A stretch of DNA of 64,000 bases from Myxococcota bacterium (GTDB lineage Bacteria; Myxococcota_A; UBA9160; UBA6930): NCBI GenBank assembly GCA_965223705.1, contig OZ245015.1, forward strand, positions 192,001-256,000. Direction: 5' to 3'. Below are positions 4,378 to 60,811 of this stretch, piece by piece. The number at the start of each line of letters is the position of its first letter. Position 1 is the first letter of the stretch. The notes under the pieces were generated by a model. That model was not told the DNA's origin and did not search any database. It saw only the letters and a list, made by a program, of their open reading frames with translations. A program made the translations under genes and the position numbers.

Positions 4378-4523
4378 TGCGATGCCGTTGGGCATCGCCC
4401 GTTTGCACCCCTCTACCGGGACCGGGGGTCGGCGGGTTTTGGAGGCGCCGGGTGAGGGCTTGGCGTGACGTGGGAAAACAACATGGGGTGAGGCCTGCGT
4501 CACTGCTCGCGCCCGGCGTCTCC
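4378..4523 (+). ncRNA. Candidate structured small RNA A
   Basis: 5' hairpin 4379-4398; long hairpin 4441-4523 with five G.U pairs valid only on the + strand, opposite to both flanking genes. Confidence 0.5.
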
Positions 4524-4555
4524 CGCAGCCGGGGCGATCGCCCCGGCTGTAGGAG
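4520..4555. terminator. Strong GC hairpin after atpE, possibly a bidirectional terminator
   Basis: CTCCCGCAGCCGGGGC-GATC-GCCCCGGCTGTAGGAG; no clear U tract. Confidence 0.45.
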
Positions 4556-4566
4556 TCGCGGCGGCC

Positions 4567-4896
4567 CTAGCCGGCGGCCGGAATGCGGAAGACGAGGAGG
4601 AGGCCCACGACGAGCCCGTAAATCGCGATCGACTCGATGAGCACCATGCCGAGAATGAAGTTGGTGAACATCGACCCTGCGGCGCCGGGATTGCGCGCAA
4701 TGCCCGCGGTGGTGTTACCGGCCGTGAGCCCTTGGCCAATACCGCAGCCGAGCGCGGCGAAACCGATCGCGATGCCAGCGCCCAGTGCGTAGCCCCAGCT
4801 GTCGCCACCGCCGGTCGCGCCCTGCGCGGCGGCCGCCATCGGCATGAGCAGCACGGCGAGGGTGTAGAGTGCAATTCGGTATGCCTTACGCATCAT
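4567..4896 (-). CDS. atpE: ATP synthase Fo subunit c
   Basis: GIGQG, ARNP loop, IESIAIY with the conserved Glu; N-terminal extension. Confidence 0.96.
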   Translation of the reverse strand: MMRKAYRIALYTLAVLLMPMAAAAQGATGGGDSWGYALGAGIAIGFAALGCGIGQGLTAGNTTAGIARNPGAAGSMFTNFILGMVLIESIAIYGLVVGLLLVFRIPAAG

Positions 4897-4908
4897 CAGT
4901 CTCCTTCA

Positions 4909-5628
4909 TTAGTGCGCTTCTTCGAGCGCCAATCCGATGTAAATCATCGTGAGTAGGGCGAACACGTAGGCCTGCAAGAACGAGACGAGCACGCCAAGCC
5001 CCATGAACGCGGCCGGCAGCACCGCCGGAACCAACATCAACCAAACGCCGACAACGGTGTGGTCGGCGAACATATTGGCGAGGAGCCGGATGCCCAGTGA
5101 GAGCACCCGCGCGCCGTGCGCCACGATTTCGAGAACCAAGAAAAGCGGGGCGAGCAGGCGCAAGTGATACGTCTTGTCGCCGACCTTCAGGTCGTAGAGG
5201 CTCGGCCCGAGAAAATGATTGAGGTAGCCCCAACCGTGCTTGCGAATGCCGACCCACTCCGAGACACCGAACGCGATGAGTGCCCAAGCGAACGTCGTGT
5301 TGCGGTCGCTCGTGGCGCCCCCGATCCCGGGGATCAGCCCGATCAAATTCGAGATCAATACGAAGACGAAAATCGTGCCGACGATCGGGAACCAACGACG
5401 CCACTCCGGTCCCATGTTCTGCTCAGCGAGATCCGAGAGGAAATCGACGATGAGCTCGAACACGTTTCGGACGCTCATCCCTTCGTCCGGAATGACTCCG
5501 CCGTTGTTGGCCGCAATACCGGCTCGCACACGCCAGCCGAAAAACGCCATGATGAGGAACGTGAAGAGAGCGGAACTAACCACCCACGGAATGCCCGTGT
5601 GATCTTCGATCGTTTCAAAGATGTTCAC
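4909..5628 (-). CDS. atpB: ATP synthase Fo subunit a
   Basis: SLGIRLLANM (essential Arg), LQAYVFALL; upstream of atpE. Confidence 0.96.
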   Translation of the reverse strand: MNIFETIEDHTGIPWVVSSALFTFLIMAFFGWRVRAGIAANNGGVIPDEGMSVRNVFELIVDFLSDLAEQNMGPEWRRWFPIVGTIFVFVLISNLIGLIPGIGGATSDRNTTFAWALIAFGVSEWVGIRKHGWGYLNHFLGPSLYDLKVGDKTYHLRLLAPLFLVLEIVAHGARVLSLGIRLLANMFADHTVVGVWLMLVPAVLPAAFMGLGVLVSFLQAYVFALLTMIYIGLALEEAH

Positions 5629-6116
5629 GCTTCGTCCTCATCTTCGATGTCGTTCTCCCGGGCAAACCAGGGGTTCCAGGCCTCCCATGCGGCTTCCTCT
5701 TCGTCGAGCGGGGCCGCTTCGACGACTTGCGGGCGTGCGAGCCAGGCGGAGAGCAACGTCGACGGGACGATGAGGGAGAGGCCGATCACCAACCCGACGG
5801 GATGCGCGCCGGCCCACAGGGAGCCCGCGATCGCCGCGAGCAGCAGAGAGAAGCGCAACCCGAAGCCCGCAGCGGCGATGGCCGAGCCGTTCCAGGCATT
5901 GTTGAACGTCGCCTCGCTGTTGCGGCGCAGCGACCGGAAATTCACCGCTTCGAGAAGCGCGCCCAATGCGAGACTCCCGGTAAAAGCCGGCGTCGCCAGG
6001 GCCCACGCTGTCGCGACGGCGCCACCCGCGATCGCCGCGTGCAAGCGCTGCACGGGACCCGCGTCGAGAACCACTGCGTCGGAACTCTGGGTGTTCGCCA
6101 ATCCGTCGTCTACCAA
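5625..6116 (-). CDS. atpI: ATP synthase protein I-like membrane protein (start uncertain)
   Basis: Four hydrophobic segments; position between atpZ-like gene and atpB. Confidence 0.7.
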   Translation of the reverse strand: MVDDGLANTQSSDAVVLDAGPVQRLHAAIAGGAVATAWALATPAFTGSLALGALLEAVNFRSLRRNSEATFNNAWNGSAIAAAGFGLRFSLLLAAIAGSLWAGAHPVGLVIGLSLIVPSTLLSAWLARPQVVEAAPLDEEEAAWEAWNPWFARENDIEDEDEA

Positions 6117-6406
6117 TCGTCTTTGTCCTGTGCGTCCCACGGGTCGTCCCACGCTTCGGGCGGGAGCGGCCGCGGAGGCTCATCGCCTTCTTCTTCGATT
6201 CGCAACGCTTCGAGCCGGCGGCTGAGTCGGACGATTCGCAAGATGAACGCTCCGAAACCGACCGCCAAACCGATGAGCGTACCGACAGGCGTTGTTCCCG
6301 CCGCGTGGTCAGCCCAAAAACCGAGGCCCGTGCCGACCAGGATGGCGATCACCGCCTCGAGCCCGCCTTGGTAAGCCAAAGCGCCGCGTCGGTTGGGACT
6401 CTTCAC
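6110..6406 (-). CDS. atpZ: AtpZ/AtpI-family protein
   Basis: G.G.WAD...GTTP...LIG...G pattern; first gene of the Fo operon. Confidence 0.75.
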   Translation of the reverse strand: MKSPNRRGALAYQGGLEAVIAILVGTGLGFWADHAAGTTPVGTLIGLAVGFGAFILRIVRLSRRLEALRIEEEGDEPPRPLPPEAWDDPWDAQDKDDW

Positions 6407-6517
6407 GATGCATCACCGCGCCAGAACCCCCTACGGGGCCCGTCCTGGCTGCATGCGGGCCGCATAGTAGCCGAGGGCCCAGTGCCACTCAACGCGCCCG
6501 AGCCTCTGTCGCGCGCC

Positions 6518-7813
6518 TCAACGCGCGCGTCGAACGGCGGCGAAGGCGTCTTCCGCGGCATCGAGTGTCCGTGCCACGTCGCGTCGCGAATGCGCCGTCG
6601 AGACGAACCCGGCCTCGAACGCCGACGGCGCTAGATACACACCGGCGTCGAGCATGGCGCGGTGGAAGCGCGCGAACCGCTTGAGATCGGAGCCGGACGC
6701 CGCTTCGAAATCCCACACCGGACCGTCCCGGAAGAAGAAACCGAACATGCCGCCCACCGAAGTGGTGTGGAACGGGATCCCGAACGCCTCCGCGCGTTGC
6801 GCGAGGCCGTCCGCCAACGCGGAGGTCCGCTCGCCGAGGATCTCGTAGACGCCGTCCTCTTTGAGGGCGTCGAGCGTCACGACACCTGCGGCCATTGCCA
6901 GCGGATTTCCGGACAGCGTTCCCGCCTGATAGACGGGCCCGTCCGGTGCGATTTCTTTCATCAGCTCCTTCGAGCCGCCGTAGGCCGCGGCCGGCAAACC
7001 GCCACCGATCACCTTGCCGAAGCAGGAGAGATCGGGTTTGACGCGGTACAGGCGTTGCGCGCCCCCCCAGGCCACGCGAAATCCCGTCATCACCTCGTCG
7101 AAGATCAACAGGGCCCCGTGGCGATCGCAGAGCTCGCGAAGACCGCGCAAGAAGCCGGCGCGGGGCGGGATGCATCCCATGTTGCCGGCGACGGGTTCGA
7201 CGATGACGCATGCGAGCTCGTCGCCCCAGCGTTCGAACGCGCGCGTCACGGCCGTGAGATCGTTGAACGGCGCCTGCACCGTCAAACCCGCGAACTCCGG
7301 CGGGACGCCCGGCGAGCCCGGGATTCCGAGGGTCGCCACACCACTGCCCGCGCCGACGAGCAGTGCGTCGGCGTGGCCGTGATAGCAGCCGTCGAATTTG
7401 AGGATGCGCTTGCGACCTGTCGCCCCGCGCGCGAGGCGCAGCGCGCTCATGGTGGCTTCGGTCCCGGAGTTTACGAAGCGCAACCGGGACACGCTCGGTA
7501 GCGCGTCGCAGACCCGTTCGGCGATTTCGACTTCGAGCCGCGTCGGCGCACCAAAACTCGTGCCCCGACTCGCCGCTTCCCGAACCGCCCGCAGCACCTT
7601 CGGATGCGCGTGGCCGAGGATCAACGGACCCCACGAGCCGACGTAGTCGATGTAGCGATTACCGTCTTCGTCTGTGACCGTCGCGCCTTTGCCCGAGGCG
7701 ATGAACGGCGGCGTCCCACCGACGGCTTGGAACGCGCGCACGGGGCTGTTGACGCCACCGGGCAAACGGCGTTTTGCACGCGCAAAGAGTTTTTTAGAGA
7801 CGTCGCGCTTCAT
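6518..7813 (-). CDS. hemL: Glutamate-1-semialdehyde 2,1-aminomutase
   Basis: [37 protein letters not shown]. Confidence 0.97.
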
Positions 7814-7823
7814 CGGCCCACGA

Positions 7824-10313
7824 TCATTGCTGCGTCGCTTCCTCGCGTTCGGCCAAGCGAGCCATGGCGACCAGGTCTTCGCCCTCGCCGAGCTCCATCA
7901 CCCGGACGCCCTGGGTCGCGCGTCCCATCGTCGAAATCGTGCTGACCGGGCAGCGAAGGACCTTGCCGCCGTTCGTAATCAGCATGACTTGGTCGTCGTC
8001 GAGGACCTGCGCAACGCCCACGACCTGCCCGTTCCGCGCGCTGGTGCGGATCGTGATGATGCCTTGCCCACCGCGACTCTGGACCCGGTAGTCGTCGAGC
8101 GGTGTGCGTTTCCCGTAGCCGCGTTCCGTCACGGTGAGAATCGTCGCGCCGGGAGAAAGGATCTCCATGCCGACGACTTCATCGGCGTCGGCGAGTTTCA
8201 TTCCGCGCACGCCCGAGGCGGTCCGGCCCATCGGTCGGACTTGCTCTTCTTTGAAGCGGATCGACTTGCCACTGCGCGAGGCGAGGATGACTTCTTGCTC
8301 GCCGGAAGTGCGACTCGCGGAGATGAGTTCGTCATCGTCCGCCAAGTTGATGGCGATGATGCCGCCGCGGCGGGGATTCGAATAGGCGCCGAGACTCGTC
8401 TTCTTGATCTGTCCCTTGCGTGTACAAAGAATGACGAAGTTCTCGCCGTCTTCCTCGAATGTCCGCACCGGCAGCGTCGCTTGCACCCGTTCGTCTTCTT
8501 GAAGCTGCAGGAGGTTGACCAGCGCCTTGCCTCGCGCTGCGCGGCTGAGCTGCGGCAACTCCCAGACCTTCTTCCAGTGCACGCGACCGCGGTTCGTGAA
8601 GAAGAGAATCGTCGCGTGGGTCGAGGCGACGAAGAGGTGCTCGACGAAGTCCTGATCCTTCGTCTCCATGCCCTTCAGGCCCTTGCCACCGCGGCGCTGC
8701 GAGCGGTACTGCGTGATGGCGTTGCGCTTGATGTAACCCGAATGGGAAACCGTGACGACCATCTCTTCTTCGACGATGAGGTCTTCCGTCGTCAGGCCTT
8801 CGACCGCGCCCGTGATCTCCGTTCGCCGATCGTCGCCGTACTTCTCGCGGATTTCCGCGAGCTCCTCGAGGACGACTTCGAGAATCCTTTCGTCGCTCGC
8901 CAGGATGGCGCGCAGCTCGGCGATCTTGGCTCGCAGCTCTTCGAGCTCGTCGAGGACCCGCTGGCGTTCGAGTGCGGTGAGCGCGCGCAACCGCATATCG
9001 AGAATCGCCTGTGCCTGACGGTCCGACAGCGAGAATTCGGCGCGCAAACCGGCGCGCGCGGCGGCGGTGTCGTCGGCGCCGCGAATGATCGCGATGACGC
9101 GATCGAGATTTTCGAGCGCGATCGCGAAGCCTTCCAAGATATGCGCGCGCGCTTCTGCCTGGGCGAGGTCGTAGGCCGTGCGACGTGCGATGACTTCGCG
9201 ACGGAAGTCGAGGAAGTGTCGCAGCGAGCTCTTCAGCGGGAGGACCTGTGGTCGCCCGTTGACCAGCGCGAGCATGTTGACACCGAACGTCGTCTGGAGC
9301 GGCGTCTGCTTGTAGAGCTGGTTGAGGATTACTTCCGCCGGCGCATCGCGTCGCAGCTCGATCACGACGCGAATGCCCTTGCGGTCGGACTCGTCGCGTA
9401 GATCCGATACACCGTCGATCTTTCCGTCGCGCACGAGATCGGCAATACGCTCCACCAGCGACGCCTTGTTCACCATGTAGGGGATCTCGCTGACGACGAT
9501 CGCGTCACCGCGTTTCCCCTCTTCGATCTCGGCGCGCGCGCGGACCGTGAGCTGACCCTTGCCCGTGGCGTAGGCGGTGCGGATACCTTCCGTGCCACAG
9601 ATCATGGCGGCGGTCGGGAAATCGGGACCCGGGATCACGGCGAGGAGATCGTCGAGGTCGCAATCCGGGTTGTTCGCTTCGAGCACCAGCGCGTCGATGA
9701 GTTCGCGGATGTTGTGGGGCGGAATGTTCGTCGCCATGCCGACGGCGATCCCGGCGGAGCCATTCGCGAGGAGGTTCGGGAAACGCGTCGGAAGAACCGA
9801 AGGCTCTTCCGTGTGACCGTCGAAATTCGCGACGAAATCGACGGTTTCGCGATCGATATCGCGCAAGAGATCTTCGGCGAGCGGCGCGAGCCGCGCTTCC
9901 GTATAGCGGTATGCGGCGGCGGGATCGCCGTCGATGGATCCGAAGTTCCCCTGACCGTCGATCAGCGGATAACGAAGCGAGAAATCCTGCACCATCCGCA
10001 CCATCGCGTCGTAGATCGCGCCGTCGCCGTGAGGGTGGTAGTGCTTGATCACCTCGCCGACGACACCGGCCGCTTTCGAGTAAGGACGCGAGGGCAGGAG
10101 CCCTTCGTCGTTCATCGCATAGAGAATGCGGCGGTGAACCGGCTTCAGGCCGTCGCGCACGTCGGGGAGTGCGCGACTGACGATGACGGACATCGAGTAC
10201 GCGAGGAACGATGCTCGGACCTCGTCCTCGATATTGACGGGGACGCTTCCGGGATCGTCGGGCGGCGGCGCGGCGCCGTCTTCGGGATTTTCCGGGGGTA
10301 CGTCTTCAGCCAT
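7824..10313 (-). CDS. gyrA: DNA gyrase subunit A
   Basis: [28 protein letters not shown], GyrA box QRRGGKG. Confidence 0.98.
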
Positions 10314-10343
10314 AGAACCTAAGCCTCGCAGGGTGCGGAGCGG

Positions 10344-12893
<2,550 letters not shown>

Positions 12894-13004
12894 TCAACAG
12901 GGTGGGTCGGCGTGTTCCGCGATATCGGCTCTGCAGCAGACGCTCGTCTGCTGGCCGGAAAAGAGCCTACATAATCTCTAAGTGTGCGTAAACCCTGACG
13001 CTTC

Positions 13005-14132
13005 TCACAAACGCATCGGCATGACCACCGCGATTGCGGTGGTCTCTTCCGCGGGCTCGAGCTGTGCCGGCGCGTTCGCCCCTCCGAGGCCGATCCGGGT
13101 CTCTTTAGCCCCGATTCCGTTCATTGCGTCGAGGAGGTAGCGAGCGTTGAAACCGATTTCGAGGTCTTCCCCGTCGTAGTCGATATCGAGCTCTTCCTGA
13201 GCTTCGCCGAGATCGGGATTCGTCGCGCTGACCACGAGCGTTCCAGACGACAGTGATACTTTGATCGCTCGGCTCCGCTCAGCTGACAGCAATGCGACGC
13301 GTCGGAGAGCGCGCACGACTTCATCCGTCGGGACGTTGAACGTGATCGGGATTTCCTTGGGGATTACTTGGCGGTAGTTCGGGAACTCCCCCTCGATGAG
13401 CCGCATCACTAGCGTGACATCGCCTTTCCTCACCAGGGCGCTGTTTCCATCGAAGCCGATCATCACCTCGTCGGCGTCGTCTTCGTCCACGAGGCGTTTC
13501 AGCTCTGCCAGACCCTTGCGCGGGATGATGACACCGCTCGCGAGTCCCTCGATGTTCTCACCGCCCCCCCGCTCGACCAGGGCCAGGCGGTGACCGTCGG
13601 TGGCAACCATGCGGATGTTGCTCGATTCCGCATCGACCTCGAAGAAGACACCGTTCAGGTTGTATCGGCTTTCGTCGAGGGAGGCCGCGTACATCGTGCG
13701 CTCGACCATGTCCGAGACCACCGGTGCAGAGAGACAGACGAGTTTGCCCGGTTCGAGCTCCGGTAGATCGGGGTATTCGGAAGCTTCATTCCCAGCGAGC
13801 GAGAAACGGGCGCGTCCGCAGCGGATATCGAGGCTCGCTGCATCCTGACTGGTGAGGTGAACGGGTTCTTCGGGGAGCTCTCGCGTGATGTCGTAGAACT
13901 TTCGCGCCGAGACCGTGAGCGTGCCTTCCTCTTCCACGTTCGCGGTGTGCGTGCCTCGAATCCCGATCTCCAGATCCGTCGCGGCGAATTCGAGTTCACC
14001 CTCGCCGTCTTTCTTTCCACGAGCCGTTAGGAGCACGTTGGCGAGAATCGGCATCGTATTGCGTTTCTCGACGATGGCCTGGATGCGGCCAAGACCTCGG
14101 AGAAGCTCGCTCCGTTGAATCGTGAGTTTCAT
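13005..14132 (-). CDS. dnaN: DNA polymerase III beta clamp
   Basis: ATDLEI, VATDGHRL, FPNY, C-terminal VVMPMRL. Confidence 0.97.
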   Translation of the reverse strand: MKLTIQRSELLRGLGRIQAIVEKRNTMPILANVLLTARGKKDGEGELEFAATDLEIGIRGTHTANVEEEGTLTVSARKFYDITRELPEEPVHLTSQDAASLDIRCGRARFSLAGNEASEYPDLPELEPGKLVCLSAPVVSDMVERTMYAASLDESRYNLNGVFFEVDAESSNIRMVATDGHRLALVERGGGENIEGLASGVIIPRKGLAELKRLVDEDDADEVMIGFDGNSALVRKGDVTLVMRLIEGEFPNYRQVIPKEIPITFNVPTDEVVRALRRVALLSAERSRAIKVSLSSGTLVVSATNPDLGEAQEELDIDYDGEDLEIGFNARYLLDAMNGIGAKETRIGLGGANAPAQLEPAEETTAIAVVMPMRL

Positions 14133-14429: not shown

Positions 14430-14579
14430 ATGAAACGCACTTATCAGCCGAGCCGCATCAAGCGTCGCCGACGTCACGGCTTTCGCGCCCGCATGAAGAC
14501 AAAGGCGGGGCGGAACATCTTGAAGCGCCGTCGTGCGAAGGGTCGCAAGCGGCTCGCCGCGACGACACCCTCGAAGTAG
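14430..14579 (+). CDS. rpmH: 50S ribosomal protein L34 (not in ORF track)
   Basis: Translated by hand: [49 protein letters not shown]. Confidence 0.98.
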
Positions 14580-14600
14580 AGCGGTCCGTCGGGTGGCGGT

Positions 14601-15193: not shown

Positions 15194-15196
15194 GCC

Positions 15197-20954: not shown

Positions 20955-21497
20955 ATGTTCCGAGCGCAGGCCCCGGGCTTCGTTCCGCTCTCGCTTCGCC
21001 CCGTTCGCTGGCTCGCGCCAGCGGCCCTGTTCATTCCCGCGACGGCGCAAGCCGCCGGCGGTGCGCTCGAGATCTTTCCCGACAAAGGCATTTTCATTCA
21101 GGTCGCGTTGTTCGCACTCCTGATCGCGCCCATCAACAAGTTCCTTTTCCAGCCGGTGATGCGTGTGTTGGAAGAGCGGCGCGAACAAATCGAAGGCGCG
21201 CGAGCCCGCGCTGAAGCGATGCAGAAGGACGCGAACGCCGTACTGGCGAAGTACGAAACCGCCGTGCTCGGCGCCCGCGAAGAAGTGGAGAACGAGCGCA
21301 AGGCCCGCGTCGAATCGGCTCGCGACGAGCGTGCAAAGTTGACGACGCAGGCGCGCTCCGGCGCCGAAGCGCAGGTGACACAAGCGCGCAGCGACGTCGC
21401 GTCGGCCCTCGAGGACGCGCGGAACCAGCTTCGAACGGAAGCCACGGAGCTCGCTCGCGAAGCGGCTTCACGCGTCTTGGGACGGGAGCTCTCGTGA
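20955..21497 (+). CDS. atpF: ATP synthase Fo subunit b'
   Basis: TM helix, NKFLFQPV..VLEERR, long charged helix ending VLGREL. Confidence 0.88.
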   Translation: MFRAQAPGFVPLSLRPVRWLAPAALFIPATAQAAGGALEIFPDKGIFIQVALFALLIAPINKFLFQPVMRVLEERREQIEGARARAEAMQKDANAVLAKYETAVLGAREEVENERKARVESARDERAKLTTQARSGAEAQVTQARSDVASALEDARNQLRTEATELAREAASRVLGRELS

Positions 21498-22060
21498 GGC
21501 GCGTTGCGATTCTTGTCGTCGCGTGTCTCACCGCTGCACCGTCCTTCGCCGCCGGCGGTGAAGGCGAAGGTAGCCACGTCTTTTGGGAGGTCTTCAACCT
21601 CCTGCTGCTGATCGCGGTCCTCATCTTCGTCACGCGCAAGTCGGTGACGGCGTTTCTCAAGAACCGACGCGATCAAGTGGCGAACAATCTCCGCGAATCC
21701 GAAGAGCTGCTGACGGAATCGAAGGAGCGACTCGCGGAGCTCGAGCGCAAGAGCGGCAACCTCGACGAGCAGCTCGTGGAAATCCGGCGCGAGGCGACTG
21801 AACGCGCCGAGCGGGAAGCCGAAGCCATCATCGCCGACGCGAGGGAAACCGCCGCGCGCATCGAGCGCGACGCGACCGGCGCGGTCGAGCGCGAAGTGCT
21901 CCGCGCGAAGCAGCAACTGCGTGCCGAGGCGTCGGAGCTCGCGATCGAGCTCGCCGCCGAGCGGTTGAAGAGCGACGTCAGCGACGCCGATCGGACGCGC
22001 TTGGTCGACGAGTTCATCGCGCGTGTCTCGGACGGCGCGAGCGCCTCGGGGACAAGCTAG
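21494..22060 (+). CDS. atpF: ATP synthase Fo subunit b
   Basis: Signal-like N terminus, FNLLLL TM, FLKNRR, coiled coil. Confidence 0.9.
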   Translation: MRRVAILVVACLTAAPSFAAGGEGEGSHVFWEVFNLLLLIAVLIFVTRKSVTAFLKNRRDQVANNLRESEELLTESKERLAELERKSGNLDEQLVEIRREATERAEREAEAIIADARETAARIERDATGAVEREVLRAKQQLRAEASELAIELAAERLKSDVSDADRTRLVDEFIARVSDGASASGTS

Positions 22061-22602
22061 TGGCGCGAAACGCGGCGGCCGGTCGCTACGGAAAGGCGCT
22101 CTTCGAACTCGCGACGGAAGAAGGTCGCGCGACCGAAGTGCGCGAGGAGCTCGCCGGTCTCGCCGAGGCCCTCGAACAAAGCGACGAGTTGAGCAACGTG
22201 CTGTTGCAACCGCTGTATCCGGCGAACGAACGAAAATCTGTACTCGCCGCGGTGGCTGAGCAACTCGGAACGAGTCCGACGTTGCAGCGGTTCTACTCGT
22301 TCCTGATCGACCAGCGCCGCTTGGTCGACATCGAGGCGATCCGCGAGGCGTACGAGTCGTTGGCCGACGCCGCAACGGGTGTTGCTCGGGCCGAGATTCG
22401 AAGCGCGAGCCCTCTCGACACCGAACAACTCGAGCGCTTGACGCAGGCTTTGGCGGCGCGCGTCGGGCAAGACGTGAGCGTGACGGTTGAGGTCGATCCC
22501 GAACTTCTCGGCGGCGTCGTCGCCAAGGTGGGCGACCTCCTTCTCGACGGCAGTCTGCGCAGCCAACTCGATCAAATGCGCAGCGCCTTACTCGACGACT
22601 GA
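22060..22602 (+). CDS. atpH: ATP synthase F1 delta
   Basis: RYGKALF, VDPELLGGVVAKVGD..DGS. Confidence 0.95.
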   Translation: MARNAAAGRYGKALFELATEEGRATEVREELAGLAEALEQSDELSNVLLQPLYPANERKSVLAAVAEQLGTSPTLQRFYSFLIDQRRLVDIEAIREAYESLADAATGVARAEIRSASPLDTEQLERLTQALAARVGQDVSVTVEVDPELLGGVVAKVGDLLLDGSLRSQLDQMRSALLDD

Positions 22603-22643
22603 GTGAGGACTGAGCGGGCCGACGGCCCGGCACGGAGCAAGCG

Positions 22644-26502
<3,859 letters not shown>

Positions 26503-26504
26503 GC

Positions 26505-26903
26505 ATGCCCTTCTCCCTCTATATCGCGACGCCCATCGGCGAGGCGTACGACGCCCAAGTCGAATCGGTGGTGCTGCCTGGGGTCGAGGGCGACTTCGGC
26601 GTTCTCGAAGGGCACGAGGCGTTTATTTCCGCGCTTCGCGCCGGCAGCCTGACGGTTCACGAGCTGGGTGGCGGTCAGCGCGTGGCCGCCGTTCCCGGCG
26701 GGTTCGCGGAGATCGCGGAAAACACGGTGACCGTGACCGTCGGCCGCTGCGAATTCGCCGACGAAGCGGACCGCAACCCCGAGGAAATCGCGCGGGAGCG
26801 CGCGCAAGCGATGATCGAGGAAATGCGAGCAACGGATGAAGGCGAGGCGTTCTACCAGCAGTACCAGGACGCGTTTTCGGAGAGAATCGCCAGCGAGAAC
26901 TAG
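26505..26903 (+). CDS. atpC: ATP synthase F1 epsilon
   Basis: PGVEGDFGVLEGH, GGFAEI; last gene of F1 operon. Confidence 0.92.
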   Translation: MPFSLYIATPIGEAYDAQVESVVLPGVEGDFGVLEGHEAFISALRAGSLTVHELGGGQRVAAVPGGFAEIAENTVTVTVGRCEFADEADRNPEEIARERAQAMIEEMRATDEGEAFYQQYQDAFSERIASEN

Positions 26904-36275: not shown

Positions 36276-36351
36276 GGGGCCGTAGCTCAATTGGGAGAGC
36301 GCCGCGTTCGCAACGCGGAGGTTGGCGGTTCGATCCCGCTCGGCTCCACCA
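36276..36351 (+). tRNA. tRNA-Ala (anticodon CGC)
   Basis: GGGGCCG/CGGCTCC acceptor stem with G3.U70, anticodon arm CCGCG-TTCGCAA-CGCGG, GTTCGA T loop, encoded CCA; 76 nt. Confidence 0.97.
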
Positions 36352-50784: not shown

Positions 50785-50794
50785 GAGAGACCGG

Positions 50795-51298: not shown

Positions 51299-51329
51299 CC
51301 GCTTGCCGTGTGATAGTTTTTCGCGACCG

Positions 51330-51851
51330 ATGACACCCAAGCTGCGCGTTTTCCTAGCGACCTTAGGCGTCGCCCTTCCCGCGGATTGGGCGTCGAAGTA
51401 CTGGATCGATCAGAACTTAAGTTACAGCGATCGCATTCCGGTGATCGACGGATTTTTCTACATCACCCACGTGCGGAACCCCGGCGCGGCGTTCGGCATG
51501 CTCGCCGACATGCCAGCGGTGTTTCGCGACGTGTTTTTCATCGCGGTGACGCTCGTCGCGGCCGTGCTTGTTTTCTCGTTCTTCCGAAACCTGGCCCCAG
51601 GGGACCGCTTTGCGGCACTCGCACTGAGTCTTGTTCTCGGCGGGGCGGTCGGGAATCTCGGCGACCGTCTCACCCGCGGTGAAGTGGTCGACTTTCTCCA
51701 CTTCCGATTGATCGGTGGCTACACCTGGCCGGACTTCAACTTCGCGGATTCGTTTATCGTGGTAGGGGTCGCCATGCTCGTGCTCGAACTCGTCGCGAGC
51801 GAGGGTGAAGAGAGCGCGGAAGCGCCGCGTGATCCTCCTCTCTCGGGCTGA
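51330..51851 (+). CDS. lspA: Lipoprotein signal peptidase II
   Basis: NPGAAFG, GAVGNLGDR, VVDF, FNFADS. Confidence 0.95.
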   Translation: MTPKLRVFLATLGVALPADWASKYWIDQNLSYSDRIPVIDGFFYITHVRNPGAAFGMLADMPAVFRDVFFIAVTLVAAVLVFSFFRNLAPGDRFAALALSLVLGGAVGNLGDRLTRGEVVDFLHFRLIGGYTWPDFNFADSFIVVGVAMLVLELVASEGEESAEAPRDPPLSG

Positions 51852-51886
51852 CGCACTTTAGTGTAACTCTGCGAGGGCCGGTGTTT

Positions 51887-51907
51887 TTTTCGCACAAATT
51901 GCGAAAA
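51887..51907. promoter_or_regulatory. Inverted repeat, candidate operator
   Basis: TTTTCGCA-CAAAT-TGCGAAAA just upstream of TTGACA (51913-51918). Confidence 0.5.
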
Positions 51908-51953
51908 GCGCGTTGACACTCTGCGCTCGTTACCGATAGAAGAACGGAAGGGT

Positions 51954-52604
51954 ATGAAGTTTTTTATCGACACGGCCAACGTCTCTGAAATTCGCGAAGC
52001 TTCGGATTTCGGTCTCCTCGACGGCGTGACGACGAACCCCACCCTGCTCTCGAAGGAAAGCGGCGAACCCACCGCCATCCTGCGAGAGATCACGAAGATC
52101 GTCGACGGCCCGGTCAGTGCCGAGGTCACAGCACTCGATGCCGGCGGCATGGTCGAAGAAGGTCTCGCGCTTCGCAAAATCGCCGAGAACATCGTGGTCA
52201 AGGTCCCGATGACCCTCGAGGGCCTGAAGGCGATCCAACAATTTTCGAAACAGGGCGTCCCGACGAACTGCACGCTGATCTTCAACGCGGTGCAGGCCCT
52301 GATGGCGGCGAAGGCCGGAGCCACGTTTGCTTCGCCCTTCGTCGGCCGACTCGACGACATCTCAACGGATGGCATGGAGCTGATCGACCAGATCTGCACC
52401 ATCTACCGGAACTACGGCTTCGCCACCGAAGTCCTCGTCGCCAGCGTGCGACATCCGGTTCATGTCGTCCAAGCGGGCATGCTGGGGGCGCACGTCGCCA
52501 CGCTGCCCGCCAAGGTGCTGAAGCAGCTCGCGGCCCATCCTCTGACCGATATCGGTCTCGAGCGCTTTCTCTCTGACTGGGAGCAGGTAAAAAACCGCTC
52601 ATAA
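51954..52604 (+). CDS. tal: Transaldolase (short TalC/FSA-type)
   Basis: DTA, GVTTNP, SAEV (Glu) and SPFVGR (Phe) are transaldolase-type residues. Confidence 0.92.
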
Positions 52605-52648
52605 ACCATCGAACTTGACGACGGCTCGGCCCGTGTGGACCCCCCTGC

Positions 52649-53440
52649 ATGAAGCGACCGAAAAGCGATTACGTGATTCAGACCGTGAGCAACGCGCTGC
52701 GCTTGCTCGAATCTTTCCGCGACGACGAGGAGCTCGGTGTCACCGAGCTCTCGAAGCGGCTCGAGCTCCATAAAAACAATGTGTTCAGGCTCTTGGCCAC
52801 GCTCGAAGAGCGTGGCTACATCGAACAGTGCGGGAAGACCGATCGCTATCGGCTCGGGCCGCGTTGTCTCGAATTGGGACGCGCATTCGCGAAGACCCGC
52901 AGTCTCCTGCGGCACGCGCGAGCGGTCCTCGAATCGTTGGCCGAAGACGTGGGCGAGACGGCTCACCTGGCGAACCTCCAAGAACTCGAAGTCCTCCATC
53001 TCGACTCCCAACCCGGTACCGGCCTGGTGGTGGCCGGCGAACGCGTCGGCCAGCGCCTGCCCGCGCATTGCACGGCACTCGGCAAGGTGCTCCTCGGCAT
53101 GGGCACGCGGGAGCTGCGAGAGCGCTTCGATCGCAGCGTCGCTCAGTCGGATGGGCTGGCGGGCCGAACCGCTTTTTCCATCACCGACCGCGACAAGTTC
53201 TTCGAGCATCTTCGGGGTGTTGCGAGCGAAGAAATCGCCATCGACTTCGAAGAATGCGAGTTGGGGCTCGCCTGTATCGCCGCGCCGGTGTTCGATGCCA
53301 GCGGGCTCGTGGTCGCGGCCCTCAGCGTTTCGGGCCCCTCCGTTCGCCTCACCGAGTCCGTACTGCGGACCGATCTCGCGGGCCCCCTCCGCGCTGCGGC
53401 GGAGGAGCTATCCCGCCGGCTCGGTCAGCCGCAGCTGTAG
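52649..53440 (+). CDS. IclR-family transcriptional regulator
   Basis: N-terminal wHTH (GVTELSKRL), PAHCTALGK, CIAAPV. Confidence 0.93.
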   Translation: MKRPKSDYVIQTVSNALRLLESFRDDEELGVTELSKRLELHKNNVFRLLATLEERGYIEQCGKTDRYRLGPRCLELGRAFAKTRSLLRHARAVLESLAEDVGETAHLANLQELEVLHLDSQPGTGLVVAGERVGQRLPAHCTALGKVLLGMGTRELRERFDRSVAQSDGLAGRTAFSITDRDKFFEHLRGVASEEIAIDFEECELGLACIAAPVFDASGLVVAALSVSGPSVRLTESVLRTDLAGPLRAAAEELSRRLGQPQL

Positions 53441-53452
53441 CTCCAGGGCGGA

Positions 53453-53481
53453 TTGCCCGGCAATCGCGCCTTCCCTAGCCT
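53453..53481 (+). promoter_or_regulatory. sigma70-type promoter with leaderless geometry
   Basis: TTGCCC-N17-TAGCCT-N6-ATG, same hexamers as at 30196. Confidence 0.6.
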
Positions 53482-53487
53482 CGCAGC

Positions 53488-54627
53488 ATGGACTTTCAGC
53501 TTTCCGACGAGCAGCTGGCCCTTCGCGAGACGGCACACCGCTTCGCCGAAGAAGAAATCGCGCCGGTCGCAGCCGAGTTTGACGAGCAGGAGAAGTTTCC
53601 GCGGGATCTGATTGAGAAAGCTTGGCACCTCGGCCTGATGAACTTGTGCATTCCCGAGGCCTATGGAGGCGTGGGTCTCGGCATGCACGACGCGTGTCTC
53701 GTCTACGAGGAGGTCGCGTGGGGATGCGGGGGTGTCGGCACCTCCACCATGGTGAACGACCTCGGCTTGTTGCCGATTCGCGTCGGCGGCAGCGAAGACC
53801 AGAAGAAGGAGTGGTTCAGCTACCTCCTGTCGGATTTCTCCCTGATCTCGTTCTGCTTATCGGAGCCGGAAGCGGGCTCCGACGTGGCGGGGATGCAACT
53901 GGCCGTCGAAAAGGACGGCGAGAGCTACATCTTGAACGGGACCAAGTGCTGGATCACGAACGGCGGCGAAGCGGATTGCTACACCGTCTTCGGAAGCCTC
54001 GACCGCTCGAGCCGGCACAAAGGCATCTGTGCGTTCGTGCTTCCGTCGGACTTGCCCGGCATCACCAAGGGCAAGAAGGAAGAAAAGCTCGGCCATCGGG
54101 CCAGCGACACGCGGGTGATTCATTTCGACAACGTGCGCGTTCCGGCGGCGAATCGCCTCGGCGAAGAGGGCGAGGGCTTTCGCATCGCGATGCAGACCCT
54201 CGATACGAGCCGGCCGGGCATCGCCGCGTTGGCCAATGGGATCGCGCAGCGGGCGCTCGACGAATCCACCGCGTACGCCAAGGAGCGCAAGGCGTTCGGT
54301 GGCACCATCGCCGACTTTCAAGCCGTGCAGTTCATGCTGGCCGACATGGCGAAAGATCTCGAGGCTTCCCGGCTGCTCACCCAACAGAGCGCCTGGATGG
54401 TGGACCAGGGCATGAACGCGTCGAAGTACTCCTCCTTCGCGAAGTGCTTCGCGACCGATGCCTGTATGAAGGCCACGATTGACGCGGTTCAGATTTTCGG
54501 GGGCAATGGCTACACTCGCGAGTACCCGGTAGAAAAGCTGATGCGGGACGCGAAGCTGATGCAGATCTACGAGGGCACGAACCAGATTCAGCGGGTCGTG
54601 ATCGCTCGGGAGCTGCTCAAGGGCTAG
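53488..54627 (+). CDS. Acyl-CoA dehydrogenase
   Basis: [36 protein letters not shown]. Confidence 0.95.
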
Positions 54628-54718
54628 TACACCCCCACGGGGTGGTCTGATACAATCCGCGACCCGGCGCCGCGCGGGCGAAACCGCCCGGCCCATTTCG
54701 CGAACTCCGAGGACCCCC

Positions 54719-56005
54719 GTGACTTCGAGAAAAGAGGCCCTCGCCTACCACGCCGATGGCCGCCCTGGGAAACTGTCGGTCGAACCGACGAAGCCCACGG
54801 CGACGCAAAACGACCTTGCGCTGGCCTACAGCCCAGGCGTCGCTGAACCCTGCCGGGAAATCGCGAAGCACCCGGAGGACGCCTATCGCTATACGGCGAA
54901 AGGCAACCTCGTCGCGGTCATTTCGAATGGGACCGCGGTACTCGGGCTCGGAAACATCGGAGCGCTGGCCGGGAAGCCCGTAATGGAAGGCAAGGGCGTC
55001 TTGTTCAAAGCGTTCGCCGACATTGATGTGTTCGACATCGAGATCGACAGCGAAGACCCGGAAGAGGTGATCCGGACGGTGCAGCTCATCGCGCCGACGT
55101 TCGGGGGCATCAACCTCGAGGACATCCGAGCCCCGGATTGCTTTGAGATCGAGCGGCGCCTGAAGGAGAGCGTCGACATCCCGGTGTTCCACGACGATCA
55201 GCACGGAACCGCCATCATTTGCGCGGCAGCGTTGTTGAACGCGCTGGAGCTCACCGGTCGGCGGCCCGAAGAGGCGCGCGTCGTTTTCTCCGGTGCGGGC
55301 GCAGCGTCGCTCTCGTGCGCGAGATTGTTCTGCGACTTCGGCGTACGCCGCGAGAACGTCTTGATGACGGACCGCCGGGGTGTGATTCACCGCGAGCGCT
55401 TGTCCGAGCTGAATGAGTACAAGCGAGAGTTCGCCGCGGACACGGAGCGGCGCTCTTTGGCCGACGCTCTCGTCGACGCCGACGTCTTCGTCGGGCTGTC
55501 GCAGGCCGGACTCGTCACCCGAGACATGGTGCGCAGCATGGCGCCCCGCCCCATCATCTTCGCGATGGCGAACCCCGACCCCGAGATTTCCCCCGACGAC
55601 GTCGCATCTGTGCGCGACGACGCGATCATGGCGACCGGGAGGTCGGACTATCCGAATCAAGTCAACAACGTCTTGGGGTTCCCGTTTATCTTTCGCGGTG
55701 CACTCGACGTGCACGCGACCGGAATCAACGAAGAGATGAAGCGGGCGGCGACGACGGCTCTGGCCGAACTCGCGAGAAGCGACGAAGCGATACCCGAGGT
55801 CGTCAAGCGGGCGTACCCGAACCGCTCACTTCGCTTCGGCCCGGACTACATCATTCCCACTCCGTTTGATCCGCGCGCGCTCCTCCGGGTGGCGCCCGCA
55901 GTCGCACAAGCCGCCATGGATACCGGCGTGGCGCGCCGAACCATCGAGCTCTCCGCATATCGAGAGAAGCTCGAACAAACCGTCGAAGCTTTGGCGTCGC
56001 GGTAA
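54719..56005 (+). CDS. Malic enzyme (MaeB-type ME domain, no PTA domain)
   Basis: [44 protein letters not shown] extended -10 at 54648-54656. Confidence 0.92.
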
Positions 56006-56022
56006 CCAGAAGAGAGAGCAAC

Positions 56023-57573
56023 ATGTCGATCGAGGAGCGAATCAAGCGGCTCGAAGAGCTCTCGGCCACGGCCGAGCAGGGCGGAGGCGCCGCCCGAATC
56101 GAGCGTCAACACGAGAGCGGGAGAATGACCGCGCGCGAGCGAATCGAGCTGTTGCTCGATCCTGGTAGTTTTTCCGAGATCGACAAGTTCGTCGTCCATC
56201 GCTGCAACGACTTCGGAATGGAGAAGAACCGGATACCCGGCGACGGCGTGGTCACCGGCTCCGGCCGGATCGACGGGCGCACGGTGTTCTTGTTCGCACA
56301 GGATTTTACCGTGTTCGGTGGAAGCCTCTCGGCGACGTTTGCCGAAAAGATCTGCAAGGTCATGGATCTCGCCGCGAAGGTCGGAGCACCATTTATCGGC
56401 CTCAACGACGGAGCGGGGGCGCGCATCCAAGAAGGTGTGGCTTCCCTCGCGGGCTACGGCTCGGTCTTCTACCGGAACGTGATGTCTTCGGCGGTGGTCC
56501 CGCAGATTTCGGCAATCATGGGACCGTGCGCCGGCGGCGCCGTCTATTCGCCCGCAATGACCGACTTCATCATCATGGTGAAGAACACGAGCAATATGTT
56601 CATCACCGGTCCCGACGTCGTGAAGACCGTGACCCACGAAGAGGTGAGCGCCGAAGACCTCGGGGGTGCGAACACCCACGCCACCAAGAGCGGCGTGTGC
56701 GCGTTCGCCGCCGGTTCCGAGCAGGAAGCGATCGGGACGATCCGCAAACTCCTCTCGTACTTGCCGGCCAACAACCTCGAGGATCCGCCGTTTCTCGAGA
56801 CCGACGACGATCCGCACCGAATGGAATCCGCGCTCCACGCCTTGGTGCCGGACAATCCGAACAAGCCCTACGACATGCGCGAGCTGATCAAGATGGTGGT
56901 CGATGACGGTGACTTCCTCGAAGTCCACGCGCAGTGGGCCCGGAACATCGTGGTCGGCTTTGCACGCTTTGGCGGCCGAGCCGTGGGTGTTGTCGCAAAC
57001 CAGCCAGCGCATCTCGCGGGTTGTCTCGACATCGACAGCTCGAGGAAGGGCGCCCGATTCGTGCGCTTCTGCGATGCGTTCAATATCCCGCTAGTCACGT
57101 TCGTGGACGTTCCGGGCTTTCTCCCCGGAACGGATCAAGAGTACGACGGCATCATTACGCACGGATCGAAACTCCTCTACGCCTTCTGCGAAGCGACGGT
57201 TCCGCGTATCTCGGTTGCCACGCGAAAAGCGTACGGCGGTGCGTACGTCGTCATGAACAGCCGGAGCGTCGGTGCCGATATGTATTTCGCGTACCCGACG
57301 TCGGAGTTCGCCGTGATGGGTCCGGACGGTGCGGTGAACATCGTCTTCCGCAAGGAGCTGGCCGACGCCGACGACGCGGTCGCGAGGAAGGAAGAGCTCG
57401 TCGAGGACTATCGCGAGAAGTTCGCGAACCCGTTCAAAGCGGCGGAGCTCGGGTTGGTCGACGAAGTCATCCGGCCCGAAGAGACGCGCCCGAAAATCAT
57501 TCAAGCCCTCAACTTGCTCGCAAACAAACGGGCGGAAAATCCGCCCAAGAAACACGGCAACGTCCCGCTCTAA
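56023..57573 (+). CDS. pccB: Propionyl/acyl-CoA carboxylase carboxyltransferase subunit
   Basis: [42 protein letters not shown]. Confidence 0.92.
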
Positions 57574-57583
57574 GAGGCTACTC

Positions 57584-59110
57584 ATGTTTTCCAAGGTGCT
57601 CATTGCCAACCGCGGGGAAATCGCGGTCCGTGTGATTCGGGCTTGCCGCGAGCTCGACGTAAAAACCGTCGCGGTGTACTCGGACGTCGATCGCGACGCA
57701 CTCCACGTCCGGCTGGCCGACGAGGCGTACCACTGCGGGGCGCCCCCGGCCGCGGAGTCCTACCTACGTGTCGATCGCATTCTCGAGATCGCACGCGAGT
57801 CGGGCGCCGAAGCGATTCACCCGGGATACGGGTTCCTCTCGGAGAACGGCGACTTTGCCGAGCGCTGCGCCGAAGAGGGGATCGTCTTCATCGGCCCGGC
57901 CGGGTCCGTGATGCGTCAGATGGGCGACAAGGTAACCGCCCGACAAACGATGGAGAAAGCGAACGTTCCCATCGTCCCGGGAACGACCGAACGGCTCACC
58001 GACGAAGAGGCGAAGCAGTGGATGGAGAAGATCGGCTTGCCGGTGATGGTGAAGGCAAGCGCCGGCGGGGGCGGCAAGGGGATGCGTCTCGTCCGCGAGG
58101 CGAAGGAAATTGATCAAGCGCTCCAGCGCGCTCGGAGCGAGGCGAAGGCCTCGTTCGGCGACGACTCGCTCTATATCGAGAAGTTTGTCGAGGAACCGCG
58201 GCACGTCGAGATTCAGATTCTCGCGGATACCCACGGCAACGTGGTCCACTTGTTCGAGCGGGAGTGCTCCATTCAGCGGCGCCATCAGAAAGTGATCGAG
58301 GAAGCTCCGGCCAACCGCATGACCGAGGACCTCCGCGCCCGGATGGGCGAGGCGGCAGTGGCCGCCGCCAAGGCGGTCGGCTACCAGGGAGCGGGCACCT
58401 GCGAGTTCCTCGTCGACGCGAAAGGCGATTTCTACTTCCTCGAAATGAACACGCGTGTACAGGTGGAGCACGCGATCACCGAGGCGATCACCGGTATCGA
58501 CATCGTGAAGACGATGATCGCGACGGCATCGGGGGAGCCCTTGCCGTTTCGGCAGGAAGATCTCGCGATTCGCGGCCACGCGTTCGAAGCGCGGATCTAC
58601 GCGGAGGACCCGGACAAGAATTTCGTGCCGTCGCCGGGGGAGATCACGGTCTATCGCCCTCCCGACGGGATCGGGGTCCGCGTCGACGGGGGCGTGTACC
58701 AGGGGGCGACGGTGACTGTGAACTACGATCCCATGGTCGCGAAGCTCGTCGTCTGGGGCGCGACGCGACAGGAATCGATCGATCGGTTGCGACGCGCGTT
58801 GCAGGAGTTCGTGGTCAAGGGCATCAAGACTTCGATTCCGTTCCACTTGAAAGTGTTGCGGCACGAGAAGTTCATCGAGGGGCACTACGACACCGGCTTT
58901 ATCGACGACCACATGGCCGGCGGCAAAGGTGCACCCGAAGAGCCCGGCGAAGAGCGGCAGACCGCCCAGGCGCTGGCGGCGATTGCCGCGTTCCGCCGGG
59001 ACAAAGAGCGCGCCGAGCGCGTGTCCTCTTCCGGGGCGAATGCGTCGGCTGGCACTGCAGCTCCGTGGAAAGAATTTGGGCGCCGTCGCCAGATGGGGAG
59101 GCTGTCGTGA
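57584..59110 (+). CDS. accC: Biotin carboxylase subunit
   Basis: IANRGEIA, HPGYGFLSEN, GGGGKGMR, ERECSIQRRHQK, EMNTRVQVEH. Confidence 0.93.
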   Translation: MFSKVLIANRGEIAVRVIRACRELDVKTVAVYSDVDRDALHVRLADEAYHCGAPPAAESYLRVDRILEIARESGAEAIHPGYGFLSENGDFAERCAEEGIVFIGPAGSVMRQMGDKVTARQTMEKANVPIVPGTTERLTDEEAKQWMEKIGLPVMVKASAGGGGKGMRLVREAKEIDQALQRARSEAKASFGDDSLYIEKFVEEPRHVEIQILADTHGNVVHLFERECSIQRRHQKVIEEAPANRMTEDLRARMGEAAVAAAKAVGYQGAGTCEFLVDAKGDFYFLEMNTRVQVEHAITEAITGIDIVKTMIATASGEPLPFRQEDLAIRGHAFEARIYAEDPDKNFVPSPGEITVYRPPDGIGVRVDGGVYQGATVTVNYDPMVAKLVVWGATRQESIDRLRRALQEFVVKGIKTSIPFHLKVLRHEKFIEGHYDTGFIDDHMAGGKGAPEEPGEERQTAQALAAIAAFRRDKERAERVSSSGANASAGTAAPWKEFGRRRQMGRLS

Positions 59111-59625
59111 TTTACGAAGTTCGCGAAGGGAAAGAGAGCGCCCGGGTCGAGCTCCGCGAGACCGGCGAGAACAGCTACGAGGTCCTCATCGACGGGAAAG
59201 CGGTCCACGTCGACGTCACGAAGAGCGCGCGGACGATCTATTCCGTCATCGAGGACGGCCGGCAGTACGAGGCGATGGTCGACGAACGCAAAGGCGACCG
59301 GTTGGACGTCACCGTGGGCGGAAGGATGTTCCACTTCGACGTCGTCGACGAACGAACGCGCATGCTGGCGGAAGCCGGTGGTGGCGCCCTCAGCGGCCCG
59401 CAGACGATCGCCGCAGACATGCCGGGGAAGATCGTCAAGATCGATGCGCAGGCCGGGCAGGCGGTCACCGAGGGTGAGGTCATTCTGATTATCGAGGCGA
59501 TGAAGATGGAGAATCCCATCGCATCGCCGATCGACGGCGTGGTGACAGCGATCGATGTGAGCGAAGGGGACGCCGTCGAGGGGGGCGCGACGCTGTTTAC
59601 CGTTGAGCCGGCGGCAGAGTCTTAG
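59107..59625 (+). CDS. Biotin carboxyl carrier subunit
   Basis: MPGKIV..EAMKMEN; GTGA overlap with previous gene. Confidence 0.92.
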   Translation: MIYEVREGKESARVELRETGENSYEVLIDGKAVHVDVTKSARTIYSVIEDGRQYEAMVDERKGDRLDVTVGGRMFHFDVVDERTRMLAEAGGGALSGPQTIAADMPGKIVKIDAQAGQAVTEGEVILIIEAMKMENPIASPIDGVVTAIDVSEGDAVEGGATLFTVEPAAES

Positions 59626-60349
59626 CGTCGACGCCGCGCTTGGCGAAGAGCCCTCCCGCCACAGCTCCGATCAGGTAGAGCACGAATAGCGGGCCGGCGA
59701 GCAAGACCTGGCTGATGATATCCGGCGGCGTGAGCACGGCTCCGAGCACGAAAGCGACGAGCAGGCCGTACTTGCTTCCCGTGATCAGCCGCCGCGTGGT
59801 CACCAGTCCGGTCGCTGCCGCAAAGAACACGAGAACCGGCAGCTCGAAGCCGATGCCGAATGCGACGAACAAGCGCGTGGTGAGCGCGAACACTTCGCGC
59901 ATCGTCCAGGCCGACGCGACGAAGTCCGTCGCAAAGCCGGAGAAGAACTCGAAGACGAGCGGGAAGACCAAGCCGTAGCCGAAACTCGCGCCGCCGGCGA
60001 ACAGGACCGTCGAAGCGAGGACGAAGGGCACGGCGAAACGTTTCTCATTGGCGTAGAGACCCGGGGCGACGAAGGCCCAGACCTGCCAGAAGAACACCGG
60101 CGTCGATAGGACAAACCCCGCCAAGAGTGCGCACTTCAGATACGTGAAGAAGATTTCCGTCGGTGCGATCGCCTGCAGGGGTGCATCCGGTCCGAGGGCC
60201 GCGAGCGCGGGGGCGAGCAGCGCGCCGAAGATCTCCTCGCGCAGCTTCCAGCACAGGACCGACGCGGCGCCCCAGGCGAGCAAGATCCAGATGATGCGAC
60301 GGCGGAGCTCCGCCAGGTGCTCCGTGAGCGGGAGCTCGGCGTCATCCAC
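59597..60349 (-). CDS. tatC: Twin-arginine translocase TatC
   Basis: [31 protein letters not shown]. Confidence 0.96.
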
Positions 60350-60614
60350 CGCTAGGCGGATCCTCTTCGCCGGACGGTGTCGATGTGGCAGCGGACTGCG
60401 GTGCGTTCTTCGCCGGGGCGCCCGGAGTCTCGGGCGGTTCCGGCTTGTCTTCCGCGGCTTCGATGAGGCTCGAGCGCAAGTCGGAGGACGCCCGGCGGAA
60501 TTCCGCCATTCCGCGGCCGAGAGAACGCGCCATTTCGGGAAGTTTGCTCGGGCCGAAGATCAGGAGCGCCACCACGAGGATGACGAGAAGCTCAGGTAGG
60601 CCGATTCCAAACAC
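60342..60614 (-). CDS. Twin-arginine translocase TatA/TatB-family subunit
   Basis: [22 protein letters not shown]....EF; overlaps tatC start. Confidence 0.92.
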
Positions 60615-60650
60615 AAGGACCCCGCGGTTACGTCGAATCTAGCCTGTGCG

Positions 60651-60785
60651 GTGGCCCGCCGCTCCGCGTCGCAACGCGATCGCGCTCCCCCCATTTTCAG
60701 CGCGATCGGCCGCTCTGCGGAACGACGGGCCCACTCTCCAACCTCTCGGGGGCGGGCTCGGCTGCCCGCCGACCTTCATCATCGT
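60651..60785 (-). ncRNA. Candidate structured small RNA B (or long tat leader)
   Basis: 5' hairpin 60751-60770; long hairpin 60651-60734 with four G.U pairs valid only on the - strand; begins at the predicted +1 of a sigma54 promoter. Confidence 0.55.
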
Positions 60786-60795
60786 GCACATCTTC

Positions 60796-60811
60796 TTCAA
60801 GAGTCGTGCCA
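60796..60811 (-). promoter_or_regulatory. sigma54 promoter
   Basis: TGGCAC-GACTC-TTGAA (C->A variant at -12). Confidence 0.7.

Follow-up and report, generated by a model that had tools for sequence, protein, structure and literature searches.

The window, the whole stretch of 64,000 nucleotides (nt) of a Myxococcota genome that was analysed (G000:C1:192001-256000), contains an intergenic locus, A, that we regard with high confidence as a genuine sigma54-dependent RNA gene, and its product represents a new structured RNA family that no Rfam family fits. Based on predicted base pairing, we consider it the most likely mechanism, with a probability of roughly 0.4, that RNA A works mainly by sequestering a small RNA (sRNA) of anti-Shine-Dalgarno (anti-SD) type, here named D, which is encoded elsewhere in the genome. 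The original prediction had joined A and a second locus of the window, B, into one undescribed family of sigma54-type structured RNAs; this description is retained for A, whose G-rich loop is conserved, but not for A and B together, as B is quite probably the remnant of a deleted REC-HD-GYP/pilZ operon and no paralogue of A. The features of locus A and its surroundings are:

4352..4367, + strand: sigma54 -24/-12 promoter of A, GGGCAT-N5-TTGC, with a predicted start at 4378
4378..4523, + strand: sRNA A, about 146 nt, with an optional 5' hairpin, a middle stem-loop, and a long 3' hairpin
4413..4423, + strand: loop 1 of A, with GGGACC in invariant alignment columns
4485..4493, + strand: seed in loop 2 of A, GGGGUGAG(G), an SD-like sequence with complementarity to UCUCACCCC in sRNA D
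4278..4283, + strand: GTTCAC word, candidate enhancer (activator-binding) half-site of A, overlapping the tmk start codon
3633..4283, - strand: tmk (dTMP kinase), a conserved flank of A
4567..4896, - strand: atpE (ATP synthase c subunit), a conserved flank of A
4526..4549, no strand assigned: perfect palindrome forming a hairpin, located between A and the stop codon of atpE and lacking conservation among orthologues

A sigma54 box was present at all 30 A loci found by BLAST and, in an unselected set of 120 metagenome loci retrieved by the loop-1 core alone, at 113 of the 115 testable ones, and rpoN is present in the genome. The GTTCAC word, which may act as the activator-binding site of A, often occurs in relatives as a tandem direct repeat and is retained also where tmk does not lie upstream; its TTCAC part was found upstream of A in 106 of 122 main-order, 6 of 6 inverted-clade, and 96 of 108 metagenome members. 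A search for an IHF site upstream of A gave a weak signal (17 of 128 loci vs. 6% in shuffles).

The RNA folds into three separate hairpins, the last of which probably doubles as a transcription terminator, as the palindrome at 4526-4549 probably is one as well. It appears as a non-coding RNA, since indels break the reading frames and the start codon is not conserved. Covariation was assessed in a MAFFT alignment of 29 members with a structure set by hand from the RNAalifold result: double changes occurred at 29 of the 45 pairs and 94% of the cells can pair, which was matched by none of 500 shuffles, and slid controls were 40-53% paired. Whereas the stems vary in sequence, the GGGACC of loop 1 and the GGGGUG of loop 2 are invariant; GGGACC stays unchanged while its closing stem changes compensatorily, and GGGGTG of loop 2 was found in 116 of 116 unselected metagenome members. 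One clade (L098, L099, L102, L185, L200, L228) has the base before the G run altered in both loops together.

BLAST detected A across the order, flanked by tmk, atpE, or both in the best 29 relatives. A covariance model built from 69 members matched 75 of 81 relatives, with a single copy in each of the 52 high-quality genomes among them, and its matches include the second order of the class. In a draw from the phylum comprising 28 genomes of the class (UBA9160 in GTDB) and 123 from outside it, the model found A in all 28 and in none of the 123 others. A pattern search of GTDB resulted in at least 119 loci, four of them chance matches (L113, L134, L176, L192); loci labelled as other phyla show the same tmk/atpE synteny as class members and are probably mislabelled bins. 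In six of these at least 119 loci, the A gene, its promoter, and GTTCAC are inverted as a block relative to tmk/atpE, which argues against a cis element and for A as a transcription unit in its own right, equipped with a candidate enhancer. Two genomes of the same genus (G002 and G001; L627, L628, L065) have cleanly lost A, tmk there following about 105 nt after atpE; they are half the size and more AT-rich, retain D and rpoN, and a further sRNA candidate, C (see below), was not found in them. A search of viral contigs for A yielded one chance match, located inside a coding region.

An Rfam scan of the window at gathering thresholds returned one tRNA (36276-36348, +) and nothing else, and A, B, 20 other A loci, C, and D gave sub-threshold matches only. 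One of these, to sX5 of the Xanthomonadaceae (RF02224, described in PMC3300014), covers 4393-4440 and is the best sX5 site in the genome, but with 25.5 bits it stays below the cut-off of 50, and the 20 other A loci revealed no sX5 match. In a true sX5 RNA, the loop is C-rich and lacks GGGACCGGGGG, and the gene follows a phasin-like one; this member reaches 18 bits on the A model, which is under the local background, so that A was rejected as an sX5 RNA. It was also rejected as 6S RNA (RF00013), since it forms three hairpins and not a closed rod with a central bubble and since one class genome, G041, holds A and a separate 6S RNA above the cut-off. With regard to 6S RNA itself, that copy (G041:C655:42071-42252) was the only one above the Rfam cut-off in five class genomes; at the syntenic place in the genome of the window (G000:C1, about 2,650,100-2,651,400) other sequence is inserted and no 6S RNA was detected.

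The proposed partner, D, came from a search for CACCCC in an unpaired state, the complement of the A loop. It lies outside the window at G000:C1, about 2,067,805-2,067,672 (- strand), beside miaB (L405, L410), and possesses a promoter of the TTGACA/CATAAT (sigma70) type and a strong terminator. BLAST matches were obtained in 73 of 81 genomes, with 76-94% identity across the order. Its C-rich bulge of 20 nt is nearly invariant, with the core AACCUCUCACCCCCCA found in 26 of the 28 class genomes; the seed is single-stranded in the consensus fold, and none of the other intergenic TCACCCC sites, 62 in all with that of D, is as accessible. Gene starts for target scans were taken from a simple in-house gene caller, and 112 of the top 200 predicted D sites fell at -20 to -1 of start codons. 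D is retained even in reduced genomes and is kept where A was lost. Its state differs in family f10 (G041, G049; L499, L500), where D has decayed: in G049 the seed is altered and has an internal complement, with no clear terminator, and in G041 D is barely recognisable.

Duplex energies were calculated with an in-house script combining duplex formation and accessibility, not with IntaRNA. Among 44 genome pairs, the contact between loop 2 and the D seed was the best predicted A-D contact in 41 (21/21, 13/14, and 7/9 in three sets, one of which leaves out 6 of 20 regions). Over 230 members, 9, 8, 7, and 6 contiguous A-D pairs were counted in 174, 23, 31, and 2 cases, respectively, six pairs being built into the selection. 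In this genome, the A-D contact reached -14.4 kcal/mol, and the 1% quantile of A over 4168 translation-start windows was -12.1. The loop of B, which was not used in picking D, pairs with the opposite end of the D bulge at -18.0 kcal/mol, ranking 4-5 of 6234 intergenic windows behind the antisense of D itself. When the bulge was permuted with its composition kept, the B value was reached in 2 of 600 permutations, the A value in 30 of 600, and both values in none.

Taken as a mechanism, an enhancer-binding activator would turn on A through sigma54, and the SD-like loop GGGGUGAG would then pair with the D bulge UCUCACCCC independently of Hfq. D itself would block mRNAs at G-rich ribosome-binding sites, and its pairing with A would free those mRNAs.

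Several observations weigh against sequestration of D as the main role of A. D was chosen by its complementarity to the A loop, and as 30 of 600 permuted bulges matched A equally well, the A-D match alone is modestly above what composition gives. A compensatory change between A and D was not seen, and GGGGUGAA in A leaves the D seed unaltered, with pairing reduced to 7 bp. In both f10 genomes examined, the A loop is intact while D has decayed. About 28 other intergenic sites pair with D as well as A does (in a scan of about 80% of the genome), and cofold gains for A-D are small (-0.7 to -9.3). Furthermore, GGGACC of loop 1 is just as invariant, and searches for a conserved complement to it, one of which covered about half of the genome, found none. 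Finally, the complementarity of B to D may be inherited from a former ribosome-binding site.

The intact A in genomes with a decayed D would also suit an ordinary trans-acting sRNA whose G-rich loops bind C-rich mRNA stretches, the match to D being incidental, an explanation we hold to be rather unlikely. It agrees with invariant single-stranded seeds in a covarying scaffold, and several of the best-ranking sites of this genome overlap a CCCC-AUG start, with energies down to -16.1 kcal/mol. However, neither seed complement was enriched near start codons and no target stood out. Among the perfect 10-mer sites checked in five genomes (30 of 32 for loop 2 and 30 of 74 for loop 1), the only recurring non-self site, one for loop 1, corresponds to a conserved protein motif of a nuoN-like gene and was discarded as a coding artefact.

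The lack of strict co-variation of A with D, together with the related (A)ACGGG word borne by both loops, would also be compatible with A titrating an RNA-binding protein, which we judge unlikely. AACGGG is present in both loops of most members, AC precedes both G runs in 92 of 130, and seven members of one clade alter both positions together; yet this concerted change represents a single lineage, and 3' of the G runs the loops differ (ACC vs. UGA), each being invariant. A decoy for CsrA/RsmA in particular was rejected, since A has a single invariant GGA without the ANGGA context, which we take to be the CsrA motif, and since G041 has A although no csrA was found there (it was found in the other four of five class genomes examined). 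A gene for Hfq was not found in any of these five.

Alternatively, A could be a general SD mimic that binds the anti-SD tail of 16S rRNA or several C-rich sRNAs, among them C and D. Candidate C is located at G000:C1, about 648,855-648,770 (- strand), between folC-like and HAD genes (L283, L284); it has a sigma54 box at each of 30 loci and consists of a single bulged hairpin with the bulge ACCCCUCC. With C, the expectation of the original prediction that the genome holds other sigma54-driven intergenic RNAs was borne out. GGGGUGA of A can pair with the 16S tail UCACCUC, C is distributed as A is (27 of the same 28 class genomes), and the reduced genomes, in which A has decayed or been lost, yielded no C either. 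Nevertheless, the predicted energies (-6.5 for A-16S and -5.7 or weaker for A-C) equal the background median and A-C cofold gains were about zero in most pairs, so that C was dismissed as a partner of A on energetic grounds and a general SD mimic appears very unlikely.

Locus B sits between an aspartic-protease gene (61004-61840, +) and tatA-tatC (-) and comprises the following features:

60796..60811, - strand: sigma54 promoter of B, TGGCAC-N5-TTGA, read as the orphaned promoter of the REC-HD-GYP/pilZ operon, with a predicted start at 60785
60780..60782, - strand: ATG at the place where the REC-HD-GYP start codon was lost, opening a 47-codon frame of no known family
60651..60734, - strand: long hairpin of B, 30 bp, found in this genome only
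60687..60698, - strand: loop of B, GAAAAUGGGGGG, complementary to CCCCCCAUCAUC of D
60678..60680, - strand: ATC aligned with the pilZ ATG of G009, likely a decayed start codon
60636..60641, - strand: TAGATT, 3' of the B hairpin, likely a separate sigma70 -10 element of tatA
60828..60840, - strand: site upstream of the B promoter, IHF-like by its sequence against what we take to be the IHF consensus

Among 29 relatives fetched at the protease gene, 15 have a sigma54 box at the same place followed by a REC-HD gene, whose start codon lies closely 3' of the box, as does the ATG of B. The -12 element TTGA is non-consensus and occurs in 2 of 46 such sites of this genome; in 11 of the 15 REC-HD promoters the -12 element is also other than TTGC. 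No counterpart of B was found upstream of tatA in the 29 relatives, which usually have a pilZ gene there instead, and orthologues of the REC-HD-GYP gene and of the neighbouring pilZ gene were not found in the present genome. B aligned with the pilZ start region of one relative, G009 (z 4.7, not reached by any of 100 shuffles, best of 27), with the loop falling on the G-rich ribosome-binding site and the ATC at 60680 on the ATG, so that the loop of B is likely the former pilZ ribosome-binding site. Weighing against this derivation, the alignment was significant in that single relative only. At 26 of 30 loci, a CTA-N3-T word is found no further than 70 nt from tatA, in line with a -10 element of its own. 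According to the proposed course, deletions would have fused the operon promoter and the first codons to the pilZ ribosome-binding region, leaving the old pilZ SD in the loop of the 30-bp hairpin. As to the operon itself, whose place is between the protease gene and tatA (60600-61000 of the window), it has been lost repeatedly, since in 8 of the 29 relatives (L253-L281) tatA directly follows the protease gene and the promoter is gone. In most loci, only a few bases separate the REC-HD start codon from the predicted +1, which suggests near-leaderless mRNAs.

Against this background, we consider it extremely unlikely that A and B are paralogues within one sRNA family, as the original prediction had it. 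The resemblances on which it was based could mostly be verified: the shared 10-mer GGTCGGCGGG is located at 4427-4436 and 60774-60765, and the long hairpins are unbranched, with 83 nt in A (4441-4523) and 84 nt in B (60734-60651). Folding favoured the assigned strands (-84 vs. -61 kcal/mol for A and -81 vs. -65 for B), with z-scores against shuffles of -4.5 for A and -5.9 for B, or -5.9 and -8.1 for the long hairpins alone. UUGGAG occurs at 4439-4444 and 60741-60736, though it is paired at the stem foot in A only and lies just outside the stem in B; likewise, both loci have a sigma54-type box in addition to G-rich loops, but the boxes read GGGCAT-N5-TTGC in A and TGGCAC-N5-TTGA in B. However, the A model gave B 10.2 bits (E 1.4, rank 12 in the window; 10.8 bits with a second model), compared with 124 bits for A and a coding background of 17.9. 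Nor are the shared words kept in A orthologues: among at least 116 second-loop pattern loci, GGTCGGCGGG was found in 8, TTGGAG in 2, and GAAAA..ATGGGG in none. Both invariant A motifs are absent from B. The 10-mer has opposite roles, being part of a stem 3' strand in A and of a hairpin 5' strand in B. Some 10-mer is shared by about 6% of GC-rich intergenic pairs drawn at random; the words common to A and B are no more than expected by chance. Besides, the promoter and loop of B trace to an mRNA operon. The suggested common action of A and B through their G-rich loops thus loses its basis in paralogy, but both loops are complementary to the predicted sRNA D, so that a convergent shared function is possible.

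Since B is predicted to bind D more strongly than A, it may represent a second decoy that is young and arose by convergence; otherwise it may be a neutral scar. We regard a functional decoy as doubtful. A neutral scar does not obviously explain why, in a scan of 709 intergenic regions, no other long hairpin proved as stable as that of B. The sequence of B was the same in contigs of two DNA runs and showed two small differences in a third, though these runs are possibly the source of the window itself. BLAST yielded no credible homologue of B in 80 relatives, no repeat of it was found within its own genome, and no exact match to its loop in metagenomes. In a wider and quite improbable picture, the Hfq-less class would possess an ancient two-RNA switch of a constitutive D and a sigma54-induced SD mimic, A, with B as a sponge caught at birth, born when deletion left nothing of a target operon but promoter and ribosome-binding site.

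For comparison, Pxr of Myxococcus xanthus (RF01812) is described (PMC5684412, PMC5568312; see also PMC11928866) as transcribed from a sigma54 promoter under an enhancer upstream, as folding into three stem-loops, as residing in a host without Hfq, and as single copy in most species. It is located downstream of its NtrC-type activator and confined to the Cystobacterineae. The comparison with Pxr made in the original prediction is useful as an analogy, but the genome contains no RF01812 match at E<=1. A shares the sigma54 promoter and the multi-stem-loop fold and differs in lying between tmk and atpE and not after an NtrC-type regulator gene. The published probe against stem-loop SL1 of Pxr (PMC5568312) implies a C-rich CACCCC loop, so that Pxr resembles D and C in polarity, A carrying the complement; the C-rich stretch of C is similar to this implied SL1 sequence. 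Pxr and MXnc1 are reported to bind near SD sequences (bioRxiv 10.1101/2025.09.11.675593).

Sponges, i.e., RNAs that pair with the seed of one sRNA and thereby release its targets, are known from SroC acting on GcvB (PMC4474525) and from QrrX and InvS (PMC13501541). In contrast to these three, A possesses a sigma54 promoter of its own, occurs throughout the class, and shows no sequence similarity to them; GcvB is Hfq-dependent, while the host of A is without Hfq. SroC derives from a target mRNA, as is proposed for B, but is an mRNA decay fragment, whereas B would have arisen by DNA deletion. Transcription driven by sigma54 and an enhancer-binding activator is described for Qrr1-5 and GlnZ (PMC13501541), which, unlike A with its lack of an Rfam match and its Hfq-less host, are Gammaproteobacterial RNAs acting on mRNAs.

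In the literature searched, no description of A, C, or D RNAs was found, most subscription journals and supplements being outside its scope. What is known of riboregulation in Myxococcota comes from very few RNAs, mainly Pxr. A, C, and D represent three RNA families that are not yet catalogued and span their class, a widespread, uncultured lineage lacking Hfq; each has a defined promoter as well as exposed seeds that are nearly invariant. They offer one exact base-pairing prediction that is testable with synthetic RNAs. Neither deeply conserved pairs of sponge and sRNA nor the origin of sRNAs from remnants of mRNAs is a settled topic, and for the latter B is a candidate intermediate.

Apart from C, further sigma54 promoters with long or C-rich leaders were noticed in the same genome (G000:C1, 476,914 -; 1,346,245 +; 1,112,167 +), one of which precedes a pilin-like gene. 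Within the window, the genes for ATP synthase are split, with atpB-atpE (4567-5628) lying about 15 kb from the remainder (within 20955-26903), and the two groups are separated by a region of gyrA-gyrB-dnaN and yidC-jag-rsmG-parA-parB.

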